Shown here: positions 243 to 30,272 of the stretch, one piece after another
Numbering within the stretch: the first letter of the stretch is position 1
Layout: each line of letters starts with the position of its first letter
DNA from: Robertkochia solimangrovi
Lineage (GTDB): Bacteria > Bacteroidota > Bacteroidia > Flavobacteriales > Flavobacteriaceae
Length of the DNA: 64,000 bases
Direction of reading: 5' to 3'
NCBI RefSeq assembly: GCF_007279655.1
Contig: NZ_QKWN01000006.1
Span: 138,033 to 202,032, forward strand
The notes under the pieces: model-generated
What the model saw: the letters and a program-made list of their open reading frames with translations, nothing else
What the model was told of the DNA's origin: nothing
The model's database searches: none
Program-made: the position numbers and the translations under genes

Positions 243-3185
243 TTATAAACTGACCTTCAGCCCCATTAAATAACTCTTTGGCATTGGATTTCCCTGATTC
301 GATACATGTTCAGGATCTACACCGATCCAATCGGTCCAGGTATGAACATTCCTTAAATTTATATATACCTGAAGGTTGTCCAACCCTATTTTTTCCAGAA
401 GAGCTTTATCGAAATCATAGCTCAGGGTTATATCCTGCAACCTGACGAAAGTTGCGCTGTCAAAATAATCGGTGTCATATTTATTGGACCCGGGAGTGTT
501 TTTAGGATAGATTGTATTTGTGTTATCTTCTCTCCAATAATCCACGACATCATAGACGTTCTCCAATTGTGGAATGAAATTATTCAGAATCGGATTTCTT
601 CGGTCTATCCCAACGATACTATTCAGGAAGAAACTAAAACTGAAATTCTTATAGGTCATTATATTCGTAAGACCTGCGGTAAAGGAAGGTACTGCACTCC
701 CGATTATTGTCTGATCACTGGTATCCACATCACCATCTCCGTCAACATCCCGATATCGCATATCACCAGGCCGATATCCTTCTTTCATAGTGTCAGGGAT
801 GGTTGGATCCTCAAAATCTTCTACCTGCCAGACCCCATCGATCATATAGTCGTAATTTACATTTATCGGCTGGCCGATAAACCATCGGCTGGCCACATCA
901 TCAATATAATTACCGTTATCATCCGTCAATCCTACATTTACGATTTCCGTGCGGTATTTTGAAAAAACGAAATTTGTTCTCCATTGAAAATCATTTTTAT
1001 CAACATTAATCGTATTCAGGGTTATCTCAAGACCGTTGTTACGGGTTTCTCCAACATTTTCTGTGATTTGATCAGTACCATTCAATGCGGGAATCGTTCT
1101 ATTGAGCAGGAGGTCTGTAGTTTTAGAAAAATAAACGTCAATATTTGCCGAAATTCGATTCTTCCATAAGGAAAAATCAGTCCCGACATTAAACGAACGA
1201 GTTGTCTCCCAGCTCAATGCAGGATTACCCAGTTTTTCGGGATAATAGCCTACTGCTGTCTGATGTTCCTCATCAAGATTTGCTTTGGGGTATAAGGGAG
1301 CCAGTGAACTGTATGGAGCGATTGCTTCATTTCCATTTTCCCCATAGGAAAGCCTTAATTTAAGCTGGGATATAAAATCAAGACTCCTGGAATTCTCCAT
1401 AAAGCTTTCGTTGGAAAGGTTCCAGCCTACTGCAAAAGATGGAAAAACCCCGAATTTATTATTTTGTCCAAAACCTGAATAACCGTCTCTTCGTATCGTA
1501 AACGTGAGTAAATAACGGTCATCATACGTATAGTTACTTCTGAACATTTGGGAAATATAGTTACGCTGTGAATAATCAGAATTTCCTGATAGAGCATTCG
1601 CGTTTGATTGTTGATAATACCCAAGTAGATCGTTTGGGAAGCCTCGGCCGGTGATCGTATTAAACTGATATGAATTTTCCTGAACACTGTAGAGTCCTGT
1701 CAGAAAGAGCTTATGCTTACCAAATGTCCGGTTATAGCTCATTATATTCTCTACCACCCAGTCTTTATCGTACTGATAAGAATTGTAAAGCTCACCATTC
1801 ACTCTATTACCTGTTCTGGTGTCCATACCATAATACCGTTCATATTGTCGATGACTATAGTTATAGCCAACATTTAATCGATACGACAGTCCTTCGATGA
1901 ATGGGATTTTAATATCAAAAAAATTGTTTGTGATGATCCGCCAGGTATCATTATTATTCTTTGCATTGGTATCAGCCATAGGATTAGCTGCCCAAAAAGC
2001 ATCTTCCCAGGAATCCAGCGTGTATGAACCATCTTCATTATAAGCATCACCCAGCGGATTAGAATTAAAGGCTTTATCTACATCGGCAGCAATACCGTCG
2101 CGATCGTAGAACCCGATCTGGGTAGTGGTTCCGAATGTGATCCAATCGGTAATCTTTGTTTCGACATTGGTCCTCAGACTTATTCTTTTAAAACTATCTC
2201 CAACAACAATTCCTTTATTATCGTTTATACCGGCAGATATATAATAACTCGATCTTTCGGAAGCACCACGTATCGAAAAATTGTGCTGTACAGAAGATCC
2301 TGTCCGCGTTGCGATATCCATCCAGTCTGTGGTATGTCCGTTGTCATAATTCTTCTGTTCGATATTGGTGAGTGGTTCTCCATATTCCACTTTTGCATCG
2401 CCAAAACGCTGACCATCCATCATTTTAGGATAGTACCCAACGGCATCCAACCGGTAAAAGGTATCATACGTAATCACAGGCTTACCTGTTTTTCCTTTTT
2501 TGGTGGTAATTAAAATAACACCATTGGCTCCTCTCGATCCATAAATTGCCGTAGAGGAAGCATCTTTCAACACATCCATCGATTGAATATCAACCGGGTT
2601 AATTTCCGAGAGATTTCCGTAATAAGGAATTCCATCGAGAATAATAAGCGGAGAATTAGAGGCTGAAATAGAATTTTGTCCCCTGATCTGAATTGTGGTA
2701 CCAGAGCCTTCCGCATCACTTGAGTTTGCGCGAATATTCAACCCAGATATCTGACCTTGTAAAGCATCGGCAGCATTCGTTTTAGGGAAACGCTCCAGTT
2801 GTTCTGCATTTATGGAAGAAACTGCTCCGGTCAGATCACTTTTTTTCATCTGACCATAACCCACGACAACTACCTCATCTAGTAATTCCTGATTCTCTTC
2901 CAAGCTGATGTTAATGGTACTTTGGTTTCCCACGGTTACTTCCTGAGATTCAAATCCGATATAACTAAAAATCAGCACTGCATTTTCAGAGGAAACGATC
3001 AGGGAGTAATTCCCATCAAAATCGGAGGTGGTGCCATTGCCAGTTCCAGCTTCCATTATGGTAACACCTGGTAGCGGAACCTTGGAAGCATCAGATATTT
3101 TACCCGTAACGTTTATTTGAGCAAACATTACCTGAGTAATAAAAAATGTAATCACAAGAATTACTTTCTTTAAGTCAGCTTTCAT
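243..3185 (-). CDS. SusC/RagA-type TonB-dependent outer membrane receptor
   Basis: 980 aa. N-terminal signal peptide followed by a carboxypeptidase-regulatory-like domain (INVTGKISDASKVPLPGVTIMEAGTGNGTTSDFDGNYSL), a plug domain and a large beta-barrel. A SusD-like gene follows downstream. Confidence 0.85.
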   Translation of the reverse strand: MKADLKKVILVITFFITQVMFAQINVTGKISDASKVPLPGVTIMEAGTGNGTTSDFDGNYSLIVSSENAVLIFSYIGFESQEVTVGNQSTINISLEENQELLDEVVVVGYGQMKKSDLTGAVSSINAEQLERFPKTNAADALQGQISGLNIRANSSDAEGSGTTIQIRGQNSISASNSPLIILDGIPYYGNLSEINPVDIQSMDVLKDASSTAIYGSRGANGVILITTKKGKTGKPVITYDTFYRLDAVGYYPKMMDGQRFGDAKVEYGEPLTNIEQKNYDNGHTTDWMDIATRTGSSVQHNFSIRGASERSSYYISAGINDNKGIVVGDSFKRISLRTNVETKITDWITFGTTTQIGFYDRDGIAADVDKAFNSNPLGDAYNEDGSYTLDSWEDAFWAANPMADTNAKNNNDTWRIITNNFFDIKIPFIEGLSYRLNVGYNYSHRQYERYYGMDTRTGNRVNGELYNSYQYDKDWVVENIMSYNRTFGKHKLFLTGLYSVQENSYQFNTITGRGFPNDLLGYYQQSNANALSGNSDYSQRNYISQMFRSNYTYDDRYLLTFTIRRDGYSGFGQNNKFGVFPSFAVGWNLSNESFMENSRSLDFISQLKLRLSYGENGNEAIAPYSSLAPLYPKANLDEEHQTAVGYYPEKLGNPALSWETTRSFNVGTDFSLWKNRISANIDVYFSKTTDLLLNRTIPALNGTDQITENVGETRNNGLEITLNTINVDKNDFQWRTNFVFSKYRTEIVNVGLTDDNGNYIDDVASRWFIGQPINVNYDYMIDGVWQVEDFEDPTIPDTMKEGYRPGDMRYRDVDGDGDVDTSDQTIIGSAVPSFTAGLTNIMTYKNFSFSFFLNSIVGIDRRNPILNNFIPQLENVYDVVDYWREDNTNTIYPKNTPGSNKYDTDYFDSATFVRLQDITLSYDFDKALLEKIGLDNLQVYINLRNVHTWTDWIGVDPEHVSNQGNPMPKSYLMGLKVSL

Positions 3186-3339
3186 TCTAAGTAGTTTTTA
3201 AAGTTGTTTTTATACATTTACAAACCAAAAAGATAAATCATCAATTTTTTGCCGTAAATTTTGACAATTATATAATTTATAATCATAATTGTTATCATTT
3301 TAATTATTTTTATCAATTTTTACCAATTTTTAGTAAACC

Positions 3340-4485
3340 ATGAATGACCAGACCAACCTTCACCAGGCCTTCATATCGAAACTTGAAAAACACTACGGTA
3401 CGTTTAGCCCGGAAAACAACCGATTTCAGTCTACCAGTAATTCAAAAATTGCCAGAGATCTGTTTTACAGCGATTCTCAATTCTCCAGACTGATTAACAA
3501 TACGGCATCCGAAGGTGAATTACAGAGGGCGGTATCTAATGTGGAACGATTATTAAGGGTCAACGAACTTCAGCGTAAAATTGATCGGTTAGACGGTACG
3601 AAATCGATATATCAAACTTCTAAATGGAAATATGCTACTTTGATAACCCTGGTCATAATCATTATTTCATCTTCTGCCTTCTTTCTTCTACGGGGAAATA
3701 ATAGTATCGACCAGATGCATCCGGCTAACCCCTCCAGATATGAAATGTTAAGATGGAGTTTTGAAAATAATTACATCAGACCCTATATCACTTTGAAAGA
3801 ATTGCCAGATGATTGTAATTATCCCTGCTATAAATATCAGGGAAAATGGGAACTCGAAAAAGAATATAAAATTCCGTTTTTCCGTGAAAGAAATGGATTT
3901 CACTATGTAGCCAAACAGGCAACGATGTATGCCACCAGTACTGATAAAAGCGGATTACAGGGTAACATTTTTGAAGGGTATGAGTATCAGAAGCATGAGA
4001 TTTGGTATGACAAAAGAGAATATCCCATTGATTCCTTTTTAGTAAAAGGTTCTAAATCTAAAGTAAGGCCGGAATATAACGAGTCAGCATTGGAACTGAA
4101 TCCGAATTTTGTGAAATTGGCCTATGTACATACCTTTTTCAAAACCGAATTTACGATCGACTCCACAAGGATAAAACGAACTGGAAAAACCATCGGACGT
4201 GATATCGAATTCCTTGCAGAATCGGAAATTATTCCAAAATTGGATGCGAAAGACCTTCTTAAGGAACTTAAAGGTGAAATAAATGCCATTGCAAGAAACC
4301 GGCTTGAAGATTTCTCAAAGCCGGTTATGTGTAATCCATCAGTAGCACCTAAGGAAGATTTTCATCTGGTGGAAGAAGGAGATATGCTGAGTTTTGACTG
4401 TCAGTTCAGAACGGGAAGATTTCTGGTTGATTATACAAAGAATTATGTTCTAAAGGATCAGTACATAAATAACTATTGCCGGTAA
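3340..4485 (+). CDS. hypothetical single-pass membrane protein (N-terminal cytoplasmic coiled-coil region, one TM helix, ~260-aa extracytoplasmic domain)
   Basis: 381-aa ORF with a hydrophobic segment ATLITLVIIIISSSAFFLL. No recognisable catalytic motif. AT-rich promoter-like region upstream. Confidence 0.5.
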   Translation: MNDQTNLHQAFISKLEKHYGTFSPENNRFQSTSNSKIARDLFYSDSQFSRLINNTASEGELQRAVSNVERLLRVNELQRKIDRLDGTKSIYQTSKWKYATLITLVIIIISSSAFFLLRGNNSIDQMHPANPSRYEMLRWSFENNYIRPYITLKELPDDCNYPCYKYQGKWELEKEYKIPFFRERNGFHYVAKQATMYATSTDKSGLQGNIFEGYEYQKHEIWYDKREYPIDSFLVKGSKSKVRPEYNESALELNPNFVKLAYVHTFFKTEFTIDSTRIKRTGKTIGRDIEFLAESEIIPKLDAKDLLKELKGEINAIARNRLEDFSKPVMCNPSVAPKEDFHLVEEGDMLSFDCQFRTGRFLVDYTKNYVLKDQYINNYCR

Positions 4486-8778: not shown

Positions 8779-9966
8779 ATGCCTGTCGGACTCATTGTTA
8801 CACTTAAAAAGATCCTGCTCGTACTCGCTGTTTTTAAGGGTATTAGTGCCTATTCCCAATTCGATAGCATTCCCTTTACGGTAAGTATTAATTTTGATCT
8901 GAAACAATCCGAAACCCTGGGGCTTTCGAAAATACAGTCCGCGGAAACAATTACGATTTTCAGACCCGAACCTGACGAAAACACCTATAATCATGGTGTT
9001 GTTCTTTTTCCTTTTAAAGATAAGCTCTATGCGCAATGGCAATGTTCCTCAAAAGATGAAGACGAACAGGATACTCATGTTGTTTATTCGGTAAGTGTTG
9101 ATGGAAAAAAATGGAGCATTCCCAAAGCGTTATCGCCTTCATATCCCAACAGGATCACAACCTCCGGTGGCTGGTGGAGTGACGGAACACAACTTGTCGC
9201 CTACCTCAATGTATGGCCCGATTCGATCAGTCCGAAAGGAGGATATACCGAATACATGATCTCTAAAGATGGAACATCATGGTCATCCCCTGAATCTGTG
9301 CTTGATCGTGAAGGGGACCCCATAGAAGGTATTATCGAACAAGACCTCCGGCTTTTGGAGGATGGAAGGATCCTAACTGCATTTCACCTACAGCCCGGAT
9401 TACATATCACCCCCTTTTATACGGATGATCCATCCGGAATAAGCGGTTGGACTCCCGGAGTGATGCCATTAAATCCTTCTGGAACTGCTATGAGCAGAGA
9501 AATCGAGCCATCCTGGTTCTTCCGGAAAGATACATCACTGGTCATGGTATTCAGAGACCAGAACAGCACCTTTAAAAAATTAGCTTCCATCAGTTTTGAT
9601 CAGGGTGCTCATTGGACGCTCCCGGTAATGGTGGACACGCCAGATTCCAGAGCCAAACAAAGTGCTGGAAATCTTCCGGACGGAATCGCCTTTATGGTAA
9701 ATAATCCTACCGGAAATAAGAATCGGTTTCCACTGGTGATCACCCTGAGTAAAGATGGATATCATTTCGATAAAGCCTTTCTGCTCCGGGATGGTAAAGA
9801 AGACCTTCAACCCATGAGACATGAAGGAAAATACAAACGACCAGGTTATAGTTATCCCAAATCTGTTATTTGGAATGATTTCCTCTATGTGGCCTACGCC
9901 ACGAATAAGGAAGATGTTGAAGTTACCCGTATCCCCCTTAAAGTTCTCTCACAGCTTTACCGCTAG
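8779..9966 (+). CDS. BNR/Asp-box repeat (sialidase-fold) secreted protein
   Basis: 395 aa. Signal peptide and several Asp-box motifs (SVDGKKWS, SKDGTSWS, SFDQGAHWT, SKDGYHF). Confidence 0.6.
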   Translation: MPVGLIVTLKKILLVLAVFKGISAYSQFDSIPFTVSINFDLKQSETLGLSKIQSAETITIFRPEPDENTYNHGVVLFPFKDKLYAQWQCSSKDEDEQDTHVVYSVSVDGKKWSIPKALSPSYPNRITTSGGWWSDGTQLVAYLNVWPDSISPKGGYTEYMISKDGTSWSSPESVLDREGDPIEGIIEQDLRLLEDGRILTAFHLQPGLHITPFYTDDPSGISGWTPGVMPLNPSGTAMSREIEPSWFFRKDTSLVMVFRDQNSTFKKLASISFDQGAHWTLPVMVDTPDSRAKQSAGNLPDGIAFMVNNPTGNKNRFPLVITLSKDGYHFDKAFLLRDGKEDLQPMRHEGKYKRPGYSYPKSVIWNDFLYVAYATNKEDVEVTRIPLKVLSQLYR

Positions 9967-22322: not shown

Positions 22323-24710
22323 TCATCTACGACCTCCGGAATAGGTCATTGCTTCTCCCTTTCCGAAGCTATAACTGAAGCCGAGGGTTAAAAAGCGTCC
22401 TCTCAACGATTGATTATATTGGTAAAAGTCAGCTTGCCGAATATTGTTTTCCTCGATTCTTGAGGCAAACAGATCCCTTACCCCCAGATTGATAATCGCT
22501 TTTCCCTGCCAAAGCTTCTTACGCAACCCAGCATCAAGAAAGGCAAACCCACTGATCTCCCCTTGTACCGTTTTGTATTTCGACTGATAATTCCCGGTTA
22601 TTTCAAGATCGATAGCTGCCGGCAATCCGAACTTTAAGGTTGAATTGACAGACCAGCGATTCCCATTAAAATCAAAGTCCTGATCCTCAAACGAGCCATT
22701 TCTAAAAAAATAACCATAATTCAGATCTCCGGTAATGGTAAGCCAATTCGCGGCTACATACTTCCCATTCAATTCCAAACCATATTGATCACGTGTTCCG
22801 ATATTCTGGGGAGTAGTAATATTTACATTGCCTTCAAATCGGGAAACCGACTCCACAACATCGGTGGTATGGAGATAATATAAGCTGGCGTTCAACGAGA
22901 GTTTATCGAGATCTGCTATTCCGGTAAGCTCATAGGAGTCTGAGAATTCAGGTTGTAAAAAGGGATTTCCCCGTCTGATATTATAAGTATTCTGTATACT
23001 GAAAAAGGGATTCAGGTCCCAAAGCCTGGGTCTGAATATTCGTCTGGAGAATCCGAGTTGAATCGAAAGATCATCCGATAATTTATAGGAGGAATGAACG
23101 GTTGGGAACAGGTTGGTATAGTTCTGATCGTTCGTCTCACGTGTATTGACCAACAAGGTATTCAGATTGGTAATTTCAACTCGCATTCCTAACTTAATTC
23201 CCCAGTGTTCACCTTCATAGGAACCAGTTGCATAGAGTCCCAGTACCTTCTGATTATATCGAAAATCATTGGTGAGATCCTCATCGATTATCCAGGATCC
23301 ATCCTCCCGGTTATATACTATATAATCATTACCGACATCATTGATCTCATACATCCCGCCGGACTCCAGGGTATAATTGTCATTGATCGGATTGGTATAA
23401 TCGAGTTTAAATGTATAATCCGATTGATAAAAATCGGTTTCTGTTCTTTGGTCTGTATCGGTAAGCTCTCCGGCCAGCAATAGATTGGTAAAAGTAGATT
23501 CCTGCTTCTTCCCGAAAAAGTTACCGGTAGCACTACCCAATAACACATGGTCTTCATTATCACCGATTTGTTTTTTGTATTGCAGATCAAACTGATATTT
23601 TGGATTATCAGCGGATGTCTCCCCTATTCGTCTGTAGGAAGATGTTAGCTTCGAATCTTCGTCCTGTGAATCGATCTTATAATCCGAAGGAGAATCTTCC
23701 TTTTCAAAGGCAAAGTTCCCGGAGAGAGTAATGATATTTCTTGGGTTCAGATAATAATCAGCTCCCAGCGTAATATTTACAAAGGTTTCATTTCTGAATT
23801 CCTTCCCATCGGTTATTACTGCGGTCTGCGATTCAAGATTTCGGTTCAAACTTTCTCTTTCTGTTGGCAATGACCGGTAACCTACACCTATCTGGGAAAA
23901 AAGGTTGAACTTTTCTGAGCGATTGTTGAGGCTAACTCCTAAACTGTGATTATCCGGAATTCCTCCGTTAACCGATATAGAACCATTAAATCCTCGTTTT
24001 TCTTCTTTTTTTAAGATGATATTGATGATCCCGGAGGTTCCTCCGGCCTCATACTTGGCAGATGGATTGGTGATCACTTCGATACTTTCGATCATATCTG
24101 CAGTAATAGTTCCCAGCGCATTACCGGAATCATCCGCAAGTACGGATGGCTTACCATTGATCAGGATCTGCACGCCACGGTTACCTCGTAAACTGACCTG
24201 ACCTTCAATATCGACAGTTACTGAGGGCACATTATTAAGAACATCCAGAGCCCCCATTCCTGTACTGCTGATATCCTTCCCCACATTGAACACACGTCGG
24301 TCGAGTTTGAACTCCACTGTAGACACTTCACCCTCTACAACTACGGCTTCCAGCGACTCCAATTGTGGATGCAGCTGAATAACTCCAAAGTCATTAGTAC
24401 CCTGGGAAATATGCAGGTTATTCATTGTCCTGGTCCTATAGCCCATAAAACTTATCTCTATAAAGATTTCCGAAGCTTCCGTACTCACGGAAAATTCACC
24501 GGACTCAGCAGTTACTCCACCGGTGATTACCTGTGAATTCAACGTACTCTTAATCGTAATCGTGGCAAAAGGAATCGGGTCTCCAGAGATACTGTCAATA
24601 ACCTTCCCGGTTATGGTAATGGCTGAATTTTGAGACCATCCTATCACCATACCGACAAAGATCAGCAGTATGGAAATAATTCTTATGTCAGGTACAAAAT
24701 GCAGTAACAT
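22323..24710 (-). CDS. TonB-dependent receptor (non-Sus type) with N-terminal carboxypeptidase-regulatory-like domain
   Basis: 795 aa. Signal peptide, a CarbopepD_reg-like N-terminal domain, a plug domain and a beta-barrel with a terminal aromatic residue. Confidence 0.8.
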   Translation of the reverse strand: MLLHFVPDIRIISILLIFVGMVIGWSQNSAITITGKVIDSISGDPIPFATITIKSTLNSQVITGGVTAESGEFSVSTEASEIFIEISFMGYRTRTMNNLHISQGTNDFGVIQLHPQLESLEAVVVEGEVSTVEFKLDRRVFNVGKDISSTGMGALDVLNNVPSVTVDIEGQVSLRGNRGVQILINGKPSVLADDSGNALGTITADMIESIEVITNPSAKYEAGGTSGIINIILKKEEKRGFNGSISVNGGIPDNHSLGVSLNNRSEKFNLFSQIGVGYRSLPTERESLNRNLESQTAVITDGKEFRNETFVNITLGADYYLNPRNIITLSGNFAFEKEDSPSDYKIDSQDEDSKLTSSYRRIGETSADNPKYQFDLQYKKQIGDNEDHVLLGSATGNFFGKKQESTFTNLLLAGELTDTDQRTETDFYQSDYTFKLDYTNPINDNYTLESGGMYEINDVGNDYIVYNREDGSWIIDEDLTNDFRYNQKVLGLYATGSYEGEHWGIKLGMRVEITNLNTLLVNTRETNDQNYTNLFPTVHSSYKLSDDLSIQLGFSRRIFRPRLWDLNPFFSIQNTYNIRRGNPFLQPEFSDSYELTGIADLDKLSLNASLYYLHTTDVVESVSRFEGNVNITTPQNIGTRDQYGLELNGKYVAANWLTITGDLNYGYFFRNGSFEDQDFDFNGNRWSVNSTLKFGLPAAIDLEITGNYQSKYKTVQGEISGFAFLDAGLRKKLWQGKAIINLGVRDLFASRIEENNIRQADFYQYNQSLRGRFLTLGFSYSFGKGEAMTYSGGRR

Positions 24711-24983: not shown

Positions 24984-25027
24984 AATCAGGAAGCTCTTCT
25001 ATAATAAGGCTTCCTGATTTTTTTTAT
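24984..25027 (+). terminator. strong hairpin followed by T8 (oriented for the + strand; may act bidirectionally for the dinB-like gene)
   Basis: AATCAGGAAGCtcttctataataagGCTTCCTGATTtttttttat. Confidence 0.5.
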
Positions 25028-25049: not shown

Positions 25050-25547
25050 TTAACGTTCATAAAATGCCGGTGGTTCGATTCCCAGAGCCCTGAGGTAAAC
25101 AAAACCCTGACCCCGGTGATGAATCTCATTATCGATAAAGTAAAAGATCGAAGACCATACTGTTCCGTCGTATTGTCCGAATATTTTGATCTTCTCCTGA
25201 AATTGTTCCGGTTTGATCTGTTGCCAATACGTATTGATGGTCTCTGTAGTCTCATCCCATAGTTTCAGATATGCCTCTTTCTTATTTCCCAGATCCCGAT
25301 TTTCATCAAAGGCCTGGACCTGTCCTGTAGCGATCTCCCTGACACCGGGTCCGGCTATTGCCAGTAACTCCAGCACCATCGCTGAAAAAGGTCGCATACC
25401 TCCGATCGTAAAATTGAAAAAATCCTCCTCAGGAAATTTTTCGATCACTCTGCGGGTCAGGTTTCGGTGGCCTTGAAAATGAGCTAAAAGCTCCTCTGAT
25501 GTAATGACTTGTGACATAGATTCTTGCTTGTTTACTAATGTATCCAT
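25050..25547 (-). CDS. DinB/YfiT-family (DinB_2) metal-dependent protein
   Basis: 165 aa with a DinB_2 four-helix-bundle profile. The conserved His residues (HFQGH, HHRGQ) are present. Confidence 0.75.
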   Translation of the reverse strand: MDTLVNKQESMSQVITSEELLAHFQGHRNLTRRVIEKFPEEDFFNFTIGGMRPFSAMVLELLAIAGPGVREIATGQVQAFDENRDLGNKKEAYLKLWDETTETINTYWQQIKPEQFQEKIKIFGQYDGTVWSSIFYFIDNEIHHRGQGFVYLRALGIEPPAFYER

Positions 25548-25806
25548 TTTCTTATTTTTTGATTATGAAACAAATTTAAAGGAGGCCTGTGACAACGGTT
25601 TGTCAGTAGTCTTTTTTTAATTTAAAACATTGGTATTCAATTAAATTCTCCCTTTCCCTAATCAAATACTCATCAAGCCTTAAGATACAATCCTTTTCCC
25701 TATCCATATCATTTAAAGGACACCTAAATCCCTTAACCAACCAACACTAAAACATAATTCTTAATCCAAAGCATTATTTCCCCAAGTATCCTGAATCCTC
25801 TGTATC

Positions 25807-26778
25807 TTGCATAACATTATGAGTACAGACACTGTTAAACGTTTCGACAGGATCATTGCGATTCTGGTCCAGTTACAATCAAAGCGAATCGTAAAAGCCC
25901 AGGAACTAGCCGATCGTTTTGAAGTAAGTCTGCGCACCATCTATCGGGACGTCAGAACCCTGGAGACCTCGGGCATCCCCATTGTAAGTGAAGCAGGTGT
26001 AGGGTATTCGATCATGGAAGGTTACCGCCTTCCTCCGGTCATGTTCACCCGTGAAGAAGCAGGTAGTTTTGTCGCTGCTGAGAAGTTCATGCAAAAATTT
26101 CTGGATAAGACCCTGGGAAGTTATCATGAATCAGCCATGTTCAAGATCAAATCGGTGCTAAGAGGGAGAGAAAAAGACTGGGTGGAAGCACTTGAATCTC
26201 AAATCGTAGTCGATCCTTCTGCAGATCTTTTCAATACGGAGATACCCGACGCATTACAGATCATTTTTGAAAGTATTGCTGAAAAGAATCAGGTTTTTCT
26301 TAGTTATCACGCTTCCCGTAGTGACGAAACTACGGAAAGAAACATCGAACCGGTAGGACTCTTTCATGAAAATGGATTCTGGTATATCATGGCTTATTGC
26401 CATTTTAGAAAAGATTATCGACAGTTTCGCACCGACAGGATCGTGGATATTAAACGTACTAACTTAGACTTTACCCTGGATCATGGAAGTTTAGATGAAT
26501 ATCGAAAGGACACCGATTCCTGTCCGAAGATAAAAGTCAGGATCGCTGTAGATAAACATGTGATCCCTTATATAAACAGTGGAAAGAATTATTATGGTTT
26601 CGTTTCCCAGCAAGCTGAAGGCAATACGGTTGAAATGACTTTTATGACCCGCGATATTCACAACAGCTTTTCGAGATGGTACCTGATGTTCTGCGACTAC
26701 GCCACCATCCTCGAACCGGAAAGTTTGAAAATCAGGGTACGTGAAATTATTGAAAAAGGACTCACTAACATTGGTTAG
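25807..26778 (+). CDS. WYL-domain transcriptional regulator (HTH + WYL + WCX-like C-terminus; YafY/PafBC-like)
   Basis: 323 aa. N-terminal HTH (VKAQELADRFEVSLRTIYRDVRTLE), a WYL core (GFWYIMAYCHFRKDYRQFRTDRI) and a C-terminal extension. Confidence 0.8.
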   Translation: MHNIMSTDTVKRFDRIIAILVQLQSKRIVKAQELADRFEVSLRTIYRDVRTLETSGIPIVSEAGVGYSIMEGYRLPPVMFTREEAGSFVAAEKFMQKFLDKTLGSYHESAMFKIKSVLRGREKDWVEALESQIVVDPSADLFNTEIPDALQIIFESIAEKNQVFLSYHASRSDETTERNIEPVGLFHENGFWYIMAYCHFRKDYRQFRTDRIVDIKRTNLDFTLDHGSLDEYRKDTDSCPKIKVRIAVDKHVIPYINSGKNYYGFVSQQAEGNTVEMTFMTRDIHNSFSRWYLMFCDYATILEPESLKIRVREIIEKGLTNIG

Positions 26779-26785
26779 TTACCAT

Positions 26786-29497
26786 TCAGATCTCTTCTTC
26801 CATCATTTCCGAGGTCTCTTCCTGACCATTATTAACGGTAGTTTCATCTTCTTCAGGCTCTTCAATGGTCTCACCGGCAGCGTTCCTTTGCTCCAGTAAA
26901 AAATATAAACCATTCATGGAATCTTCATAAACAGAGATAGCAACTCCGTCACTGTTCTCTGCCAACTCATTATTTTCATTATACCGGCTGATCTTACCAA
27001 CAATTCCGGAGTTGAACAGTTCATAATCATAAATGGCAGTTCCGTAGGTATCATTCATAAGCTTCAAATCTGCACCATAGGTTTCAGACCGACTGATCTC
27101 ACCCACCGGCTCCCAGGTATAACGTATCTTATGATATCCGTAATCACCGATCACAGGAACACCGTCCTTATCAAAATATGCATAGGTCAGGGTATGCCCG
27201 AGTTCATTTAATTCGATTTTTGTAAAGGAGATTCCAGCATAATTATCAACAGTACTATCATCTTCATCCAGAAACCGGAGTGAAGTTAACCAGCCACGCT
27301 CATTATAGGTCTTAACCTCTGCACTGATCCCGGTTGCTTCTCTTGCCCGTCTGCCATGCTTATCAAAAAATGCGATCTTCAGTAATGAGCCGTATGCGTT
27401 ATAATATTTCTTGCTGGTACAGGCACCCTCAATCAATTTTGAATCGATACCATACTTTTGAAGAATCGTTTCATTTCCCCATTTATCGTAAGATTTTCGG
27501 GTCATATGAACTCCCTCGGCCAGGATTGGTTCCCCTGTACCATTAAAAATACGGGACTCAATCAAGCGGTCACGACTATCATATTTAAATTTAATTATGC
27601 TTTTTATGCCTTCCTCTTCCGTCGCAGTGTATTCTGTTTGCTGGATGACATTTCCATGATCATCAAAATCGTATTCATAACGGGCTACACCATCAACGTT
27701 GGCAATATTGATTCCCAGGGAATCCAGTGATCTTTTCTCCCTGGCATACCCTTCAGCATTACGATTAAAAGTATATGTACAGATTCCATCCGGGGTTTTT
27801 GCCGGATTTTCGTCCGCTCCGAAATAACGCTCCATTAATAAATTTCCCGAAGCGTCCTTTTTAGATTCGATGATGGCCACATTATTAGTATTCTCTATAA
27901 TATTCCCATAGGCATCGAGATTTAATTGACGAACAATGCTATCACCCATATATTCATAACGGGTACCTCCCCATTTATAATCATCATACCTGAGAACATA
28001 TCCCGGATAATAAGTAGCCTCATATCGCTTCCTTCCCAGATCATCATACGCTGTAACTCTTTCGAAGATATCGTCGTTGGCAATAATGGGCTCATGGTTT
28101 ACATTGAATCGCTTCTCGCTTATTTCACGATCATTACGGTCATAACGATATTCATATATGGATGCTCCGTTATCATCATAAGTAAGCTGCCCGTCTTCAT
28201 CCAGAGAGCTAACCTGAATTACATTCCCTCGTTCATCATATTCATATTTCAGATTGAAATCTGATAAATATTTGGCAGGCCTGCCCTGGTCATCATACAT
28301 ACGGTAAGCGATCTTTCGATGTTGCATGTTATATTCAAATTCAGACCGGCCTATGAGGTCTTTATCCAGAACCAGCTGCAGCTTATGATCCAGATTTTCC
28401 ACGCTTATGGTATGTCCGCTTCCGTCGAGTTTTATACGACTATGAAAAATTCCATGCTCATCAGCTACCGATTTGCCTTTTTTATCAAGATATGAACTGA
28501 CATAAGTAGAATCGACGGCATTGTAAACCCATTTGATCTGACTATAATTGAAAGGGGACACTTTTTGATCCTTAGCATCCAAAAACTCGATCAACCGTTC
28601 ATCATCACTTGTTTTTACAGATCTGTGTCGGTAGTTTTTAAGTTTCGTATTGAAGGTGCCATCACTGTTTAAAAGCCTGAATTCGATTTCACCATCTCTG
28701 TTTTTAATGATACGGGTGATGGCAGTTTCGAAATATCCTCCGTTAACCAAGGTTCCGTTCTTATAAAACCTTATTTCTTTGACCCAGGCACTTGCGTTAT
28801 GAATCTCATAAACTTCATTATTTTCAAAATCGTAATCATCGGCTGGATAAGAATATAGTATCGTTCCATCATGGGTAACGTAGATCTTTCTGTAATACTT
28901 CGAGCTATTACTCGAATAACGACGGTAATGCTGAATGTTCTCATCCCCATAATAGGCAGTCTGGCGTAGCCAGTCATCGATCTGTAATTCCCAAAACCTT
29001 TGTTTTGGTGTATCGGCATTATGGTCGGCTTCAGTGTCATACTGATTCTGCAAACTATCCCGCAAGGTATTGTATTTGAGTCTCAGGGAATCCATTACCG
29101 CATAGTTTAGTCCATTCATTCCCAATGTTACAATATCTCTTCTCAAAAGTCGCGCACAATATTCCGTTATATTGAAATGATATTGTTCGTGGGTGAGTAC
29201 ATTATAGGAATCGTATTCATCCTTCAATTTTTCCGATTGATTCGGATCCATATAAGCAAAGACCCGGTTATTGGTATCTGTGATTAGTCGCGGACACGAT
29301 ATTCCGGAATAGATGGTTGCCACGTATTCGTCTTCCAAATAAGAAACCTCTGTAAAATCATCCCAGGATAGTGATCTTTCTGACCAGGTTAGATTCGGTT
29401 TGACTATCGTTGATTTCCTTTCATTGTGGGTAACACCAAAACCAAGTATTAGGATCAGTAAAATTCCGGAAGTAATAAGATGGTGTTTAGTTTTCAT
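26786..29497 (-). CDS. secreted multidomain protein: N-terminal HExxH (DUF922-like putative zinc peptidase) domain, long RHS/YD-type repeat region and an acidic disordered C-tail
   Basis: 903 aa. Signal/TM N-terminus and an HEQYH motif. Repeated YxYDxxGN units (YEYDERGNV, YEYDFDDHGNV, KYDSRDRLI, TAYDDLGRK). C-terminus is EEPEEDETTVNNGQEETSEMMEEEI. No RHS core/toxin tip was recognised. Confidence 0.55.
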   Translation of the reverse strand: MKTKHHLITSGILLILILGFGVTHNERKSTIVKPNLTWSERSLSWDDFTEVSYLEDEYVATIYSGISCPRLITDTNNRVFAYMDPNQSEKLKDEYDSYNVLTHEQYHFNITEYCARLLRRDIVTLGMNGLNYAVMDSLRLKYNTLRDSLQNQYDTEADHNADTPKQRFWELQIDDWLRQTAYYGDENIQHYRRYSSNSSKYYRKIYVTHDGTILYSYPADDYDFENNEVYEIHNASAWVKEIRFYKNGTLVNGGYFETAITRIIKNRDGEIEFRLLNSDGTFNTKLKNYRHRSVKTSDDERLIEFLDAKDQKVSPFNYSQIKWVYNAVDSTYVSSYLDKKGKSVADEHGIFHSRIKLDGSGHTISVENLDHKLQLVLDKDLIGRSEFEYNMQHRKIAYRMYDDQGRPAKYLSDFNLKYEYDERGNVIQVSSLDEDGQLTYDDNGASIYEYRYDRNDREISEKRFNVNHEPIIANDDIFERVTAYDDLGRKRYEATYYPGYVLRYDDYKWGGTRYEYMGDSIVRQLNLDAYGNIIENTNNVAIIESKKDASGNLLMERYFGADENPAKTPDGICTYTFNRNAEGYAREKRSLDSLGINIANVDGVARYEYDFDDHGNVIQQTEYTATEEEGIKSIIKFKYDSRDRLIESRIFNGTGEPILAEGVHMTRKSYDKWGNETILQKYGIDSKLIEGACTSKKYYNAYGSLLKIAFFDKHGRRAREATGISAEVKTYNERGWLTSLRFLDEDDSTVDNYAGISFTKIELNELGHTLTYAYFDKDGVPVIGDYGYHKIRYTWEPVGEISRSETYGADLKLMNDTYGTAIYDYELFNSGIVGKISRYNENNELAENSDGVAISVYEDSMNGLYFLLEQRNAAGETIEEPEEDETTVNNGQEETSEMMEEEI

Positions 29498-30272
29498 AGG
29501 ATACCGGTTGTTTTTTAGAAATTAAAACATAGGTACTTTCAAAAGGATAGCAAAGGATGCTGATCACCAGAATATAAATGAGATCAAGTGGAAAAATCTC
29601 AAAAGGCAGCCCTCCAAATTGCTTAAAATACATAGTACACAGTATCCAGTAAAAGGTTGAAAACAGCATACGTTCTCGGAATCTTTTGAAGGAATCCGGA
29701 ATGGCATAACCTGAAAAACTTATCCAGAGATATAAAAAATAGAATACTAACGGGGTCAAAAAAAGTACAGCTAAAACTAACGGTATTGAATAGGCGAAAA
29801 TATGGGCTATCAATACAACCACAAGTACACTCGATAATAAAGGAGTACTCATCAAAATGAGTCGGGATACATTATGCTGAGTGAGACAGAATAATTTTTG
29901 AAAAGTCAAAACCTCTGTGTTATTCGTATAAGGATCAATCGCTTTAGGATTAGTACCGTAACGATTTTCTAACCCTGACCCTTCACTAAATAACTGCACT
30001 AAAATATAGAATGGTATAAATTGATTAAATCCAGATTCTCCCAGATCATGACATCGCTTTGTTCCCTGAGCTATCATAAACCAAGTAACTATAGCACCCA
30101 TCAAATAGAATAGCGCTGGTATCTGGTCCAGGGTATTTTCAAACGCGAAAATAATACTATCGGCTGCAATTGCAATAATAAGGCTCAATCCAAATTCAAG
30201 TCGTCTGATGCGACCGTCGAACGAAAATGGTGCTAAAAACATAATAAGTAGGTTGGTCAATCTGAAAAGCAA
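29487..30272 (-). CDS. DUF805-family inner-membrane protein with additional C-terminal TM region
   Basis: 261 aa. DUF805 hallmarks (GRIRRLEF, RCHDLGESG, ENRYGTNP) and extra TM helices. It overlaps the downstream large gene by 11 bp, suggesting translational coupling. Confidence 0.65.
   Translation of the reverse strand: MLFRLTNLLIMFLAPFSFDGRIRRLEFGLSLIIAIAADSIIFAFENTLDQIPALFYLMGAIVTWFMIAQGTKRCHDLGESGFNQFIPFYILVQLFSEGSGLENRYGTNPKAIDPYTNNTEVLTFQKLFCLTQHNVSRLILMSTPLLSSVLVVVLIAHIFAYSIPLVLAVLFLTPLVFYFLYLWISFSGYAIPDSFKRFRERMLFSTFYWILCTMYFKQFGGLPFEIFPLDLIYILVISILCYPFESTYVLISKKQPVSYEN

Follow-up and report, generated by a model that had tools for sequence, protein, structure and literature searches.

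The question raised by this locus is whether a transcription regulator and the small gene read away from it form a true regulator-target pair, and whether such a pair could respond to DNA damage without LexA. The locus is found at positions 25,050 to 26,778 of a 64,000-nucleotide stretch of Robertkochia solimangrovi (marine, Flavobacteriaceae; contig NZ_QKWN01000006.1, positions 138,033 to 202,032), called here the window. It comprises a DinB-family gene coding for 165 amino acids (aa) (25050-25547, - strand), the presumed regulated target, recognised by its match to Pfam PF05163 and its similarity to PDB 6IZ2, and the divergent gene of a 319-aa YafY-type transcription regulator (25819-26778, + strand) with winged helix-turn-helix (wHTH), WYL and WCX domains, recognised by the Pfam profiles HTH_11, WYL and WCX and by Foldseek. 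A first-pass annotation had described both genes and their divergent arrangement, which open reading frames (ORFs) and Pfam matches bear out, and had read them as a candidate LexA-independent damage-response module. We found that the pair is a conserved unit whose intergenic region carries a predicted operator at a fixed distance from the promoter. The best explanation, which we consider probable rather than assured, is a SiwR-like regulator-target pair responsive to single-stranded DNA (ssDNA), with the regulator working as an activator on a hybrid promoter.

The conservation of the gene pair was followed in the best 80 of 200 regulator relatives, taken as one genome per GTDB species, which are 66-75% identical to the window regulator and span about 20 genera of Flavobacteriaceae plus Marivirga; dinB orthologs at these loci were detected by tblastn with the window DinB-family protein. 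In 78 of the 80 loci the DinB-family gene, with 58-74% identity, is the immediate upstream neighbour of the regulator gene and is read from the other strand, and the remaining two loci are one with a truncated dinB match and one cut by the contig end. The pairing proposed by the first-pass annotation is supported, and the WYL gene does not occur with unrelated neighbours, the case which that annotation had named as refuting it. After clustering the ORFs of 81 loci, only the dinB and WYL families were universal, the next neighbour family reaching 27 of 81 loci, and the pair therefore constitutes a self-contained two-gene module. This comparison demonstrates a conserved and self-contained unit, predicted to be one of regulator and target.

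What lies between the two genes depends on where the regulator begins. Translation from the ATG at 25819 gives the 319-aa form, which is 100% identical over its full length to an NCBI protein of Robertkochia solimangrovi and whose first residues are kept in relatives, so this conserved ATG is most likely the start, and the intergenic region therefore measures 271 bp; the 259 bp given earlier holds only if the regulator starts at the TTG at 25807. In this region the first-pass annotation had noticed an inverted repeat with TGACAA and TTGTCA arms, which are indeed present, with the spacer corrected from five to four nucleotides and the position from 25589-25605 to 25590-25605, giving TGACAA-N4-TTGTCA. 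This operator palindrome, TGACAACGGTTTGTCA, with the core TGACA-N6-TGTCA, is the only perfect match in the window. Inside the window alone the repeat is not significant, given that 32% of shuffles of this intergenic region yield a perfect inverted repeat whose arms are 6 bp and whose loop is 3-6 nt long, and that one-mismatch matches to the core in the window number 3 against 1.9 expected. Both figures would suit a chance repeat in an AT-rich intergenic region between genes that are mere neighbours, and only conservation rescues the palindrome. Searching 79 dinB-WYL intergenic regions returned the exact TGACAA-N4-TTGTCA in 51, the same site with two or fewer mismatches in its 12 arm bases in all 79, and the 10-base core TGACA-N6-TGTCA with at most one mismatch, again in all 79, the remaining sequence having diverged; the inverted repeat first noticed is accordingly a conserved operator by this comparison.

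The position of the palindrome is as conserved as its sequence. In Bacteroidota, promoters carry a -7 box of the form TAnnTTTG and usually a -33 element, TTTG, 19-21 nt upstream of it, as known from promoter studies in Bacteroides and Flavobacterium. We take the box TAAATTTG (25571-25578, - strand), lying 11 nt downstream of the operator and 23 nt before the ATG of the dinB-like gene, to be its -7 element, given the consensus TAnnTTTG. The spacing TGTCA-N11-T[AT]nnTTT[GA] is found in 78 of 79 dinB promoters and in 74 of 77 WYL promoters, and ungapped alignment of the sites yields the consensus tTTTTt.CTaC-TGACA.aggGcTGTCA-C..cccc..t.-TAatTTTG on the dinB side and T.tTGACAa...GtTGTCAc-N10-T...TTTG on the regulator side. 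The flanks of the dinB-side operators (L001-L080) are asymmetric, with a conserved T-run and CTAC upstream; downstream stand a C and then a spacer of 10 nt that is rich in C. The composite pattern has 153 exact matches in the 753 kb made up of the ortholog loci and the window, all of them inside dinB-WYL intergenic regions and none elsewhere, and is specific enough for predicting regulon members straight from genome sequence. With the palindrome kept in all 79 regions, all composite matches so confined, the spacing conserved and the gene adjacency preserved in every testable locus, we reject the reading of the repeat as a chance feature, whose probability we regard as next to nil.

No TTG is present at the canonical -33 spacing in the aligned dinB promoters, the nearest one being inside TTGTCA, only 14 nt from the -7 box, and many dinB-side sites read CTGTCA; therefore, the operator occupies the place of the -33 element, and it covers roughly -38 to -23 of the dinB promoter. 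A sigma-70 promoter scan of the locus was of no help in a Bacteroidota genome. Taken together, the comparison establishes TGACA-N6-TGTCA, exactly 11 nt upstream of the dinB -7 box, as the predicted cognate DNA site of the regulator, and the operator would replace a -35-type element at a fixed distance in the way described for PafBC, SiwR, DriD and DdaA.

Nearly all relatives have two operator copies, one 37-56 bp from the dinB start and the other nearer the regulator gene. In the window intergenic region no second copy was found with up to 3 mismatches, and Pricia (L072) is likewise without a clear second site. On the other side of the same palindrome, also at 11 nt, we noticed a candidate -7-like box on the + strand, TTAATTTA (25617-25624), possibly belonging to a WYL promoter; it is created by an A-run of the window that replaces the T-run on the dinB-oriented strand, and it accompanies an imperfect 24-nt mirror symmetry around the operator (25572-25595 / 25600-25623). 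Given a single palindrome with a box at N11 on each side, one operator may thus serve both divergent promoters in the window. The final G of this candidate box is an A, and the WYL leader that it implies is of about 190 nt.

Which kind of protein would read this site? The regulator belongs to the wHTH-WYL-WCX family, as the first-pass annotation had described it, with an HTH_11 match of 58 bits (cutoff 25) over residues 11-63 (25849-26007, + strand), a WYL match of 71.5 bits (cutoff 21.8) over residues 145-212 (26251-26454, + strand), and a C-terminal WCX-like domain at residues 237-313 (26527-26757, + strand), where the Pfam WCX match is sub-threshold (20.8 bits vs. a cutoff of 23.9, E 5e-4) and the orthologs carry PF25583. 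In the PDB the nearest relatives, at 17-20% identity, are PafBC and PafB. By sequence, PafBC matches with E 2e-16 over HTH, linker and WYL, PafB with E 6e-10 over the linker, WYL and a portion of the HTH, and the further matches to CapW, PafC and BrxR cover the WYL domain only. The AlphaFold2 (AF2) monomer model, used for domain-level fold matching only, has a predicted local distance difference test score (pLDDT) of 68, the three domains being of moderate to good quality (about 78-94 in the WCX region) and the linker poor, and forms five to six strands over residues 157-217, in the WYL domain. In Foldseek against the PDB, this model gave 31 significant matches, all of them full-length wHTH-WYL-WCX proteins, ranked PafB/C > DriD > CapW > BrxR.

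The residues expected to touch DNA are strictly kept. R39 and R43 of the recognition helix (S37-L-R39-T-I-Y-R43-D) are invariant in 81 orthologs and correspond to the GTC-reading R-x3-R pairs R46/R50 of PafB, R37/R41 of DriD, R38/R42 of SiwR and R47/R51 of DdaA, so that a GTC/GAC triplet in the half-site goes together with two recognition-helix arginines four residues apart, as a predicted contact. The perfect palindrome is also consistent with a symmetric regulator dimer. Invariant in the same 81 orthologs are the WYL-domain residues Y163, R174, W188-Y189, R201-x-F203-R204 and R207, which by motif mapping only fit the ssDNA contacts Y168, R178, Y192 and R204-x-W206-R207 of DriD and R204/R207 of SiwR; the mapping was made by motif because DriD was not detected against the regulator by sequence, even with a profile.

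We therefore suggest the following mechanism, to be read as a proposal. The WYL protein would bind the palindrome as a homodimer via its winged HTH, in which R39 and R43 would recognise the GTC triplets, and its WYL domain would bind ssDNA arising from DNA damage, upon which the regulator would activate the hybrid promoter composed of operator and -7 box without a -33 element. Activation would follow the pattern of PafBC, with its "sigma adaptation" at the -26 element, of DriD and DdaA, and especially of SiwR, and the product would be a DR0053-like DinB-family metalloprotein. In most relatives, the second operator copy, having the same geometry, would drive the regulator's own gene and provide a positive feedback. 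Homodimer binding, the ssDNA signal and activation are each inferred here.

An operator lying over -38 to -23 would be an ideal repressor site as well, and this has to be weighed directly against activation. The WYL protein could be a repressor of the CapW/BrxR type acting on the same operator, blocking RNA polymerase at the -33 region until released by ssDNA, and acting also at the regulator's own promoter in relatives; damage induction of the dinB-like gene would then be the same outcome. For such a repressor speak the near-consensus -7 box beside an operator that covers the -33 position, since perfect TAnnTTTG boxes could support a constitutive transcription in need of repression, as well as the general experience that divergent, autoregulated local regulators are commonly repressors. 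CapW and BrxR have the same fold and architecture and are among the significant sequence and fold matches, and CapW is released by its ligand, ssDNA, from a palindromic operator of the type found in the bidirectional promoters of CapW/BrxR systems (PMC11662680). Further points weighing against an ssDNA-responsive activator are that the ssDNA-contact residues correspond by motif and not by structural superposition, that the linker of the AF2 model has a pLDDT of only about 30, and that the + strand box of the window is imperfect. Against repression stands the N11 spacing, which is rigid in both the dinB and the WYL promoters, two independent sets from about 20 genera, and identical to the PafBC register, whereas repressor sites usually allow variable placement. 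A -33 element at canonical spacing is missing too, PafBC and DriD outscore CapW and BrxR, PafBC aligning over HTH, linker and WYL and CapW over WYL only, and there is no defence-system context. Since the register is rigid and PafBC-like, the -33 element is absent and the protein is closer to the activators, activation is favoured over repression, as roughly twice as probable by these comparisons, and the CapW/BrxR-type repressor is in our judgement plausible, if the less likely of the two.

As to the product of the presumed target gene, the first-pass annotation had placed it in the DinB/YfiT superfamily under the name DinB_2. The superfamily is right, as it includes both PF05163 and PF12867; the family name is wrong, since the protein matches PF05163, "DinB family", with 71.5 bits (cutoff 23, E 1.1e-19), and has no match to DinB_2 (PF12867) at E<=0.01. 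Its nearest solved structure is PDB 6IZ2 (DR0053), with E 5.3e-32 over residues 14-165, and among 79 orthologs at least 97% keep residues H27, D139, N140, E141, I142, H143, H144 and R145. By sequence, then, it is a member of the PF05163 family and presumably resembles the YjoA/DR0053-like four-helix-bundle metalloproteins. In Deinococcus radiodurans, gamma radiation and mitomycin C strongly induce dr0053, and a mutant of the gene shows sensitivity to these two treatments, though not to H2O2 (PMC4338110).

In order to see where else this promoter type occurs, we consider a scan of metagenome contigs with the exact composite pattern, which gave at least 120 stretches; because the pattern itself fixed N11, the scan is no independent test of that spacing. 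Out of these at least 120 matches, 31 precede DinB-family orthologs that are 46-73% identical to the window protein. The two genes are still adjacent among these orthologs, with 6 divergent cases and 16 in which they converge tail to tail; the regulators of the convergent-type loci (L090, L107, L109, L113, L131 and others) are 41-61% identical. In the convergent-type loci the regulator gene is without an operator of its own, and autoregulation is thereby rejected as a universal trait. A WYL-like gene is present in a stereotyped position in 53 of 120 motif-picked stretches while the target genes vary, and this recurrence of the WYL gene, and not of the target, is the signature expected of a cognate regulator and its site; the composite motif is, on this evidence of gene context, tied to the WYL protein rather than to the DinB gene. 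In the non-DinB stretches the regulator is usually a paralog, mostly 30-47% identical, often of about 230 aa, whose gene ends shortly before the motif in the same orientation, as in L094 (9158-10226, + strand), with the regulator end at 9694, the motif at 9711-9745 and the target start at 9768. These short HTH-WYL regulators (L094 and many of L081-L200) match residues 1-228 of the query only and are apparently without WCX. The motif-preceded targets include GyrI-like/Cass2, glyoxalase/bleomycin-resistance, PhnB-like, AHSA1, YdeI/OmdA, DUF4345 and DUF1761 proteins, and further an alpha/beta hydrolase, PNPOx, TfoX_C and a second DinB type.

In metagenomic Bacteroidota, composite promoters also precede the repair genes recA (L156), ssb (L199), uvrB (L167, L192) and tag, coding for 3-methyladenine glycosylase (L085:7847-7881). 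In the case of recA, the motif catgtTGACAyACwGTTGTCA-N11-TACTTTTG is perfect in L156 and in three fetched close relatives (4/4; L156:6192-6226, - strand; L205:2413-2447; L206:2368-2402; L207:2399-2433), with diverged flanks. The RecA proteins of L205-L207 are 95-97% identical to that of L156, and the clade consists of Flavobacteriaceae that are uncultured; L156 and L206 encode a short HTH-WYL paralog of 227 aa just upstream, L205 and L207 do not. Four more distant Flavobacteriaceae (L201-L204) have no such motif upstream of recA, which weighs against the damage reading; being found in one narrow clade only, recA control is therefore lineage-specific, and recA as a general regulon member was rejected. 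In one of those four, Lutibacter sp. A80 (L203), a different DinB-family gene (PF05163/PF12867; 1888-2403, - strand) is divergent from recA (2501-3514, + strand) across 97 bp, where no TGACA-N6-TGTCA site was found. At the uvrB loci L167 (3989-4023, + strand) and L192 (- strand) the motif lies 114-124 nt upstream, the proteins being 93% identical and the upstream flank different, and a second -7-like box, TATTTTTG, is found nearer the ATG, with a short conserved ORF-like stretch in between.

Repair genes also surround the regulator gene itself in some lineages. An alkB-type oxygenase gene (2-oxoglutarate- and Fe(II)-dependent, PF13532) follows the WYL gene on the same strand in 27 of 81 loci (Flagellimonas/Allomuricauda; for example L013:5042-7486, + strand, and L048:4977-5588, + strand), and in 14 of these 27 an Ada-like AraC-HTH/MGMT fusion gene and a gene for a PF09859 "Oxygenase-NA" protein, an oxygenase of the "oxidative demethylation of damaged DNA" type, stand between the two; the alkB/ada genes may form an alkylation-repair operon read from the regulator's operator-bearing promoter. 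In 16 other loci polA, the DNA polymerase I gene, is convergent and immediately downstream of the WYL gene (L006:4965-7817, - strand; Tenacibaculum, Snuella and related loci). As for LexA, the boxes known for the non-canonical LexA of Bacteroidetes, GGA-N5-TCC as well as CTAA-N5-TTAG (PMC8565304), occur in none of the 79 intergenic regions, so the module would act independently of a LexA-like SOS system, and LexA/SOS control through an intergenic box was rejected.

Another possibility is that the pair has to do with detoxification, the WYL domain sensing a small molecule or second messenger and the DinB protein being a thiol- or metal-dependent enzyme directed at xenobiotics or electrophiles. 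The DinB/YfiT superfamily does include thiol transferases, Pfam calling PF04978 "Mycothiol-S-transferase", and most of the other genes with a composite promoter code for small ligand-binding or detoxification proteins. Moreover, another WYL regulator is reported to be a sensor of cyclic di-GMP (c-di-GMP) (PMC11880434), which also tells against ssDNA as the self-evident ligand. Against such a switch, the orthologs show no variation in the Arg/Tyr set that serves for ssDNA in DriD, SiwR, CapW and DdaA; recA, uvrB, ssb, tag and the alkB/ada operons are linked either to this promoter type or to the regulator gene; radiation and mitomycin C, but not H2O2, are what the dr0053 mutant is sensitive to; and many "detox" families act on genotoxins such as bleomycin, thus fitting a damage model equally well. 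We consider a detoxification switch improbable, and return to the ssDNA-responsive activator as the preferred explanation.

How far does the damage link reach? The promoters of recA, uvrB, ssb and tag come from other organisms, and a regulator adjacent to them, where there is one, is short (about 230 aa) and only 36-47% identical, which counts against carrying their role over to the window; the repair-gene promoters being foreign and their regulators only paralogs, the damage link is therefore made by family analogy. The evidence supports a LexA-independent genotoxic-stress role for this regulator clade, and by analogy the window regulator may share it. In this qualified form the LexA-independent reading of the first-pass annotation is indirectly supported, resting on the activator-like promoter and residues, on DR0053, on the lack of a LexA box and on the recA, uvrB, ssb and tag promoters. 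These occurrences also hint that in Bacteroidota this type of promoter belongs to a broader set of genes, some of them connected with repair. More tentatively, and at somewhat less than even chances, we suggest a class of Bacteroidota WYL-dependent hybrid promoters, TGACA-N6-TGTCA-N11-TAnnTTTG, read by a YafY-type clade of full-length and short (about 230-aa) paralogs, which would replace the -33 element and reprogram the primary sigma factor as PafBC does, together making a LexA-independent genotoxic-stress network with the dinB-WYL pair as its most conserved local module. If true, this network would include, by lineage, recA, uvrB, ssb, tag, alkB/ada, DinB-family, GyrI-like, bleomycin-resistance/glyoxalase, AHSA1 and YdeI genes.

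The borders of the module in the window can be drawn with the same comparison. A strong hairpin (24984-25019, - strand), 30 nt past the dinB stop codon, has a predicted RNA fold of -24.6 kcal/mol (z -6.3 vs. shuffles) and is followed by T8 on the + strand. It is likely a terminator, by its modelled fold, which would leave dinB monocistronic, and given the T8 it may terminate transcription both ways; a simple terminator scan called no terminator-like site in the region, this hairpin included. The hairpin sits between the dinB-like gene and a TonB-dependent receptor gene (22323-24710, - strand). On the other side, a gene at 26786-29497 (- strand) converges on the WYL gene with a 7-bp gap. Its 903-aa product matches RHS repeats weakly, has a hydrophobic segment at the N-terminus and is very acidic towards the C-terminus; the first 11 nt of this gene are shared with the end of a gene for a DUF805 membrane protein (29487-30272, - strand). 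Neither the RHS-like gene nor the DUF805 gene is conserved beside the pair in relatives. For want of conservation we rejected both the RHS-like gene and the TonB-dependent receptor gene that follows dinB as partners, and an operon larger than the pair was rejected on the lineage-dependent flanking genes and the strong hairpin after dinB. With PADLOC the regulator matched generic WYL profiles only and its neighbours had no match, and together with the neighbourhood analysis of orthologs this led us to reject a defence-island regulator of the CapW/BrxR context.

In our literature searches no report was found of an ssDNA-sensing WYL damage regulator in Bacteroidota, nor of this pair in Flavobacteria. 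WYL damage-response activators are already known from Actinobacteria, Alphaproteobacteria and Acinetobacter, and the design of the pair was published in 2023 for SiwR (PMC10693628), which makes the locus less novel than the first-pass annotation implied. New here are the phylum, the DR0053-like DinB subfamily, the operator sequence and its pairing with a -7 box, the dual-site or shared-site bidirectional layout, and the hint of a broader gene set behind this promoter type. What results is less a surprise than a hypothesis that is well supported and can be tested directly. We suggest keeping in mind that ssDNA-sensing WYL regulators have recently emerged as the main LexA alternative for switching on damage responses, and that Bacteroidota had their SOS system defined only in 2021 and use an unusual sigma factor with -33/-7 promoters. 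The locus provides a minimal and highly conserved test case, with one regulator, one 16-bp operator and one target, and could show whether activation by an operator that replaces the -35 element works with the Bacteroidota RNA polymerase. It would also be a fourth route to stress-inducible DinB-family proteins, beside LexA in Bacillus (as reported in PMC10693628), the PprI-dependent route of Deinococcus and the mycobacterial SiwR, and so sharpens the question of what DinB-family proteins do after DNA damage.

Among the known systems, DR0053 of Deinococcus radiodurans is the one most like the target, being of the same DinB subfamily over nearly the full length and sharing the GHR and DNE[IV]HHRGQG motifs. 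The difference lies in control, since induction of dr0053 needs PprI, RecA and DrtR/S, with no WYL regulator named (PMC4338110), in contrast to the local WYL regulator with a conserved operator found here. CapW and BrxR, which repress CBASS and BREX defence systems, share with the window regulator the wHTH-WYL-WCX fold, and with the locus a palindromic operator in a bidirectional promoter, but here no defence genes are adjacent and the similarity is weaker than to the activators.

DriD and DdaA are WYL activators of damage responses that do without LexA. DriD of Caulobacter reads the site ATACGAC-N7-GTCGTAT through R37/R41 in promoters without -35, where its sites lie over the -35 position and keep the same distance to -10 throughout; the driD promoter is bound as well. 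In Acinetobacter, DdaA uses R47/R51 to bind CGACAATATGTGTCG, the DdaA box being CGACA-N5-TGTCG, and its binding motifs are predicted for several promoters, those of recA, ssb and uvrA included (PMC10853764, PMC13004042, PMC13010146). The likeness consists of pseudo-palindromes with GAC/GTC cores (CGAC-N7-GTCG; CGACA-N5-TGTCG), bound by homodimers in DriD and DdaA, of a site over the -35 position at a fixed distance from -10, of conserved Tyr and Arg residues, which in DriD and DdaA bind ssDNA, and, in the case of DdaA, of recA, ssb and uvrA motifs that mirror the metagenomic recA, ssb and uvrB composite promoters. In contrast, the core triplets here are one bp further apart (GAC-N8-GTC), there is no linked cell-division inhibitor, and the window regulator has only a local target within the sequence available.

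In parallel, PafBC recognises the motif tGTCgg(N10)tA(N3)T in promoters without -35, with PafB contacting the -26 element (-23 to -28) and R46/R50 reading GTC (PMC8635444). Common to PafBC and this locus are the TGTC half-site, a 16-nt distance between the T of TGTC and that of TA, the absence of a -35 or -33 element, and the GTC triplet together with two arginines four residues apart, and PafBC is the best PDB match in sequence and fold. PafBC differs in being a heterodimer or a fusion that has just one specific half-site and about 150 genes in its regulon, where a homodimer, a full palindrome and a local target are expected here, and the sigma factor and -33/-7 recognition differ in Bacteroidota.

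The closest of all is SiwR of M. smegmatis, which is divergent from two DinB-superfamily genes and activates on H2O2 or zeocin, with a palindrome between -35 and -10, a required -26 region and ssDNA bound via R204/R207 (Keller, Flattich & Weber-Ban 2023, PMC10693628). SiwR is known as a homodimer with ssDNA as its ligand and induction after genotoxic stress. The SiwR system belongs to Actinobacteria and this one to Bacteroidota; the targets of SiwR are a DinB_2 (PF12867) and a DUF664/MST (PF04978) protein in a two-gene operon, and here a single PF05163 gene (DR0053/YjoA-like). Its 19-bp imperfect palindrome with GGA at -26 has as its counterpart the 16-bp TGACA-N6-TGTCA site, set before a Bacteroidota -7 box and, in relatives, repeated at the regulator's own promoter. 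What the two systems share is the essential design, namely msmeg_1357-56 on one side and the dinB-like gene on the other as DinB/YfiT-superfamily genes divergent from a wHTH-WYL-WCX regulator, a palindrome in the -35/-10 zone, and the HTH R-x3-R and WYL R-x-x-R pairs, essential in SiwR and present here by sequence.

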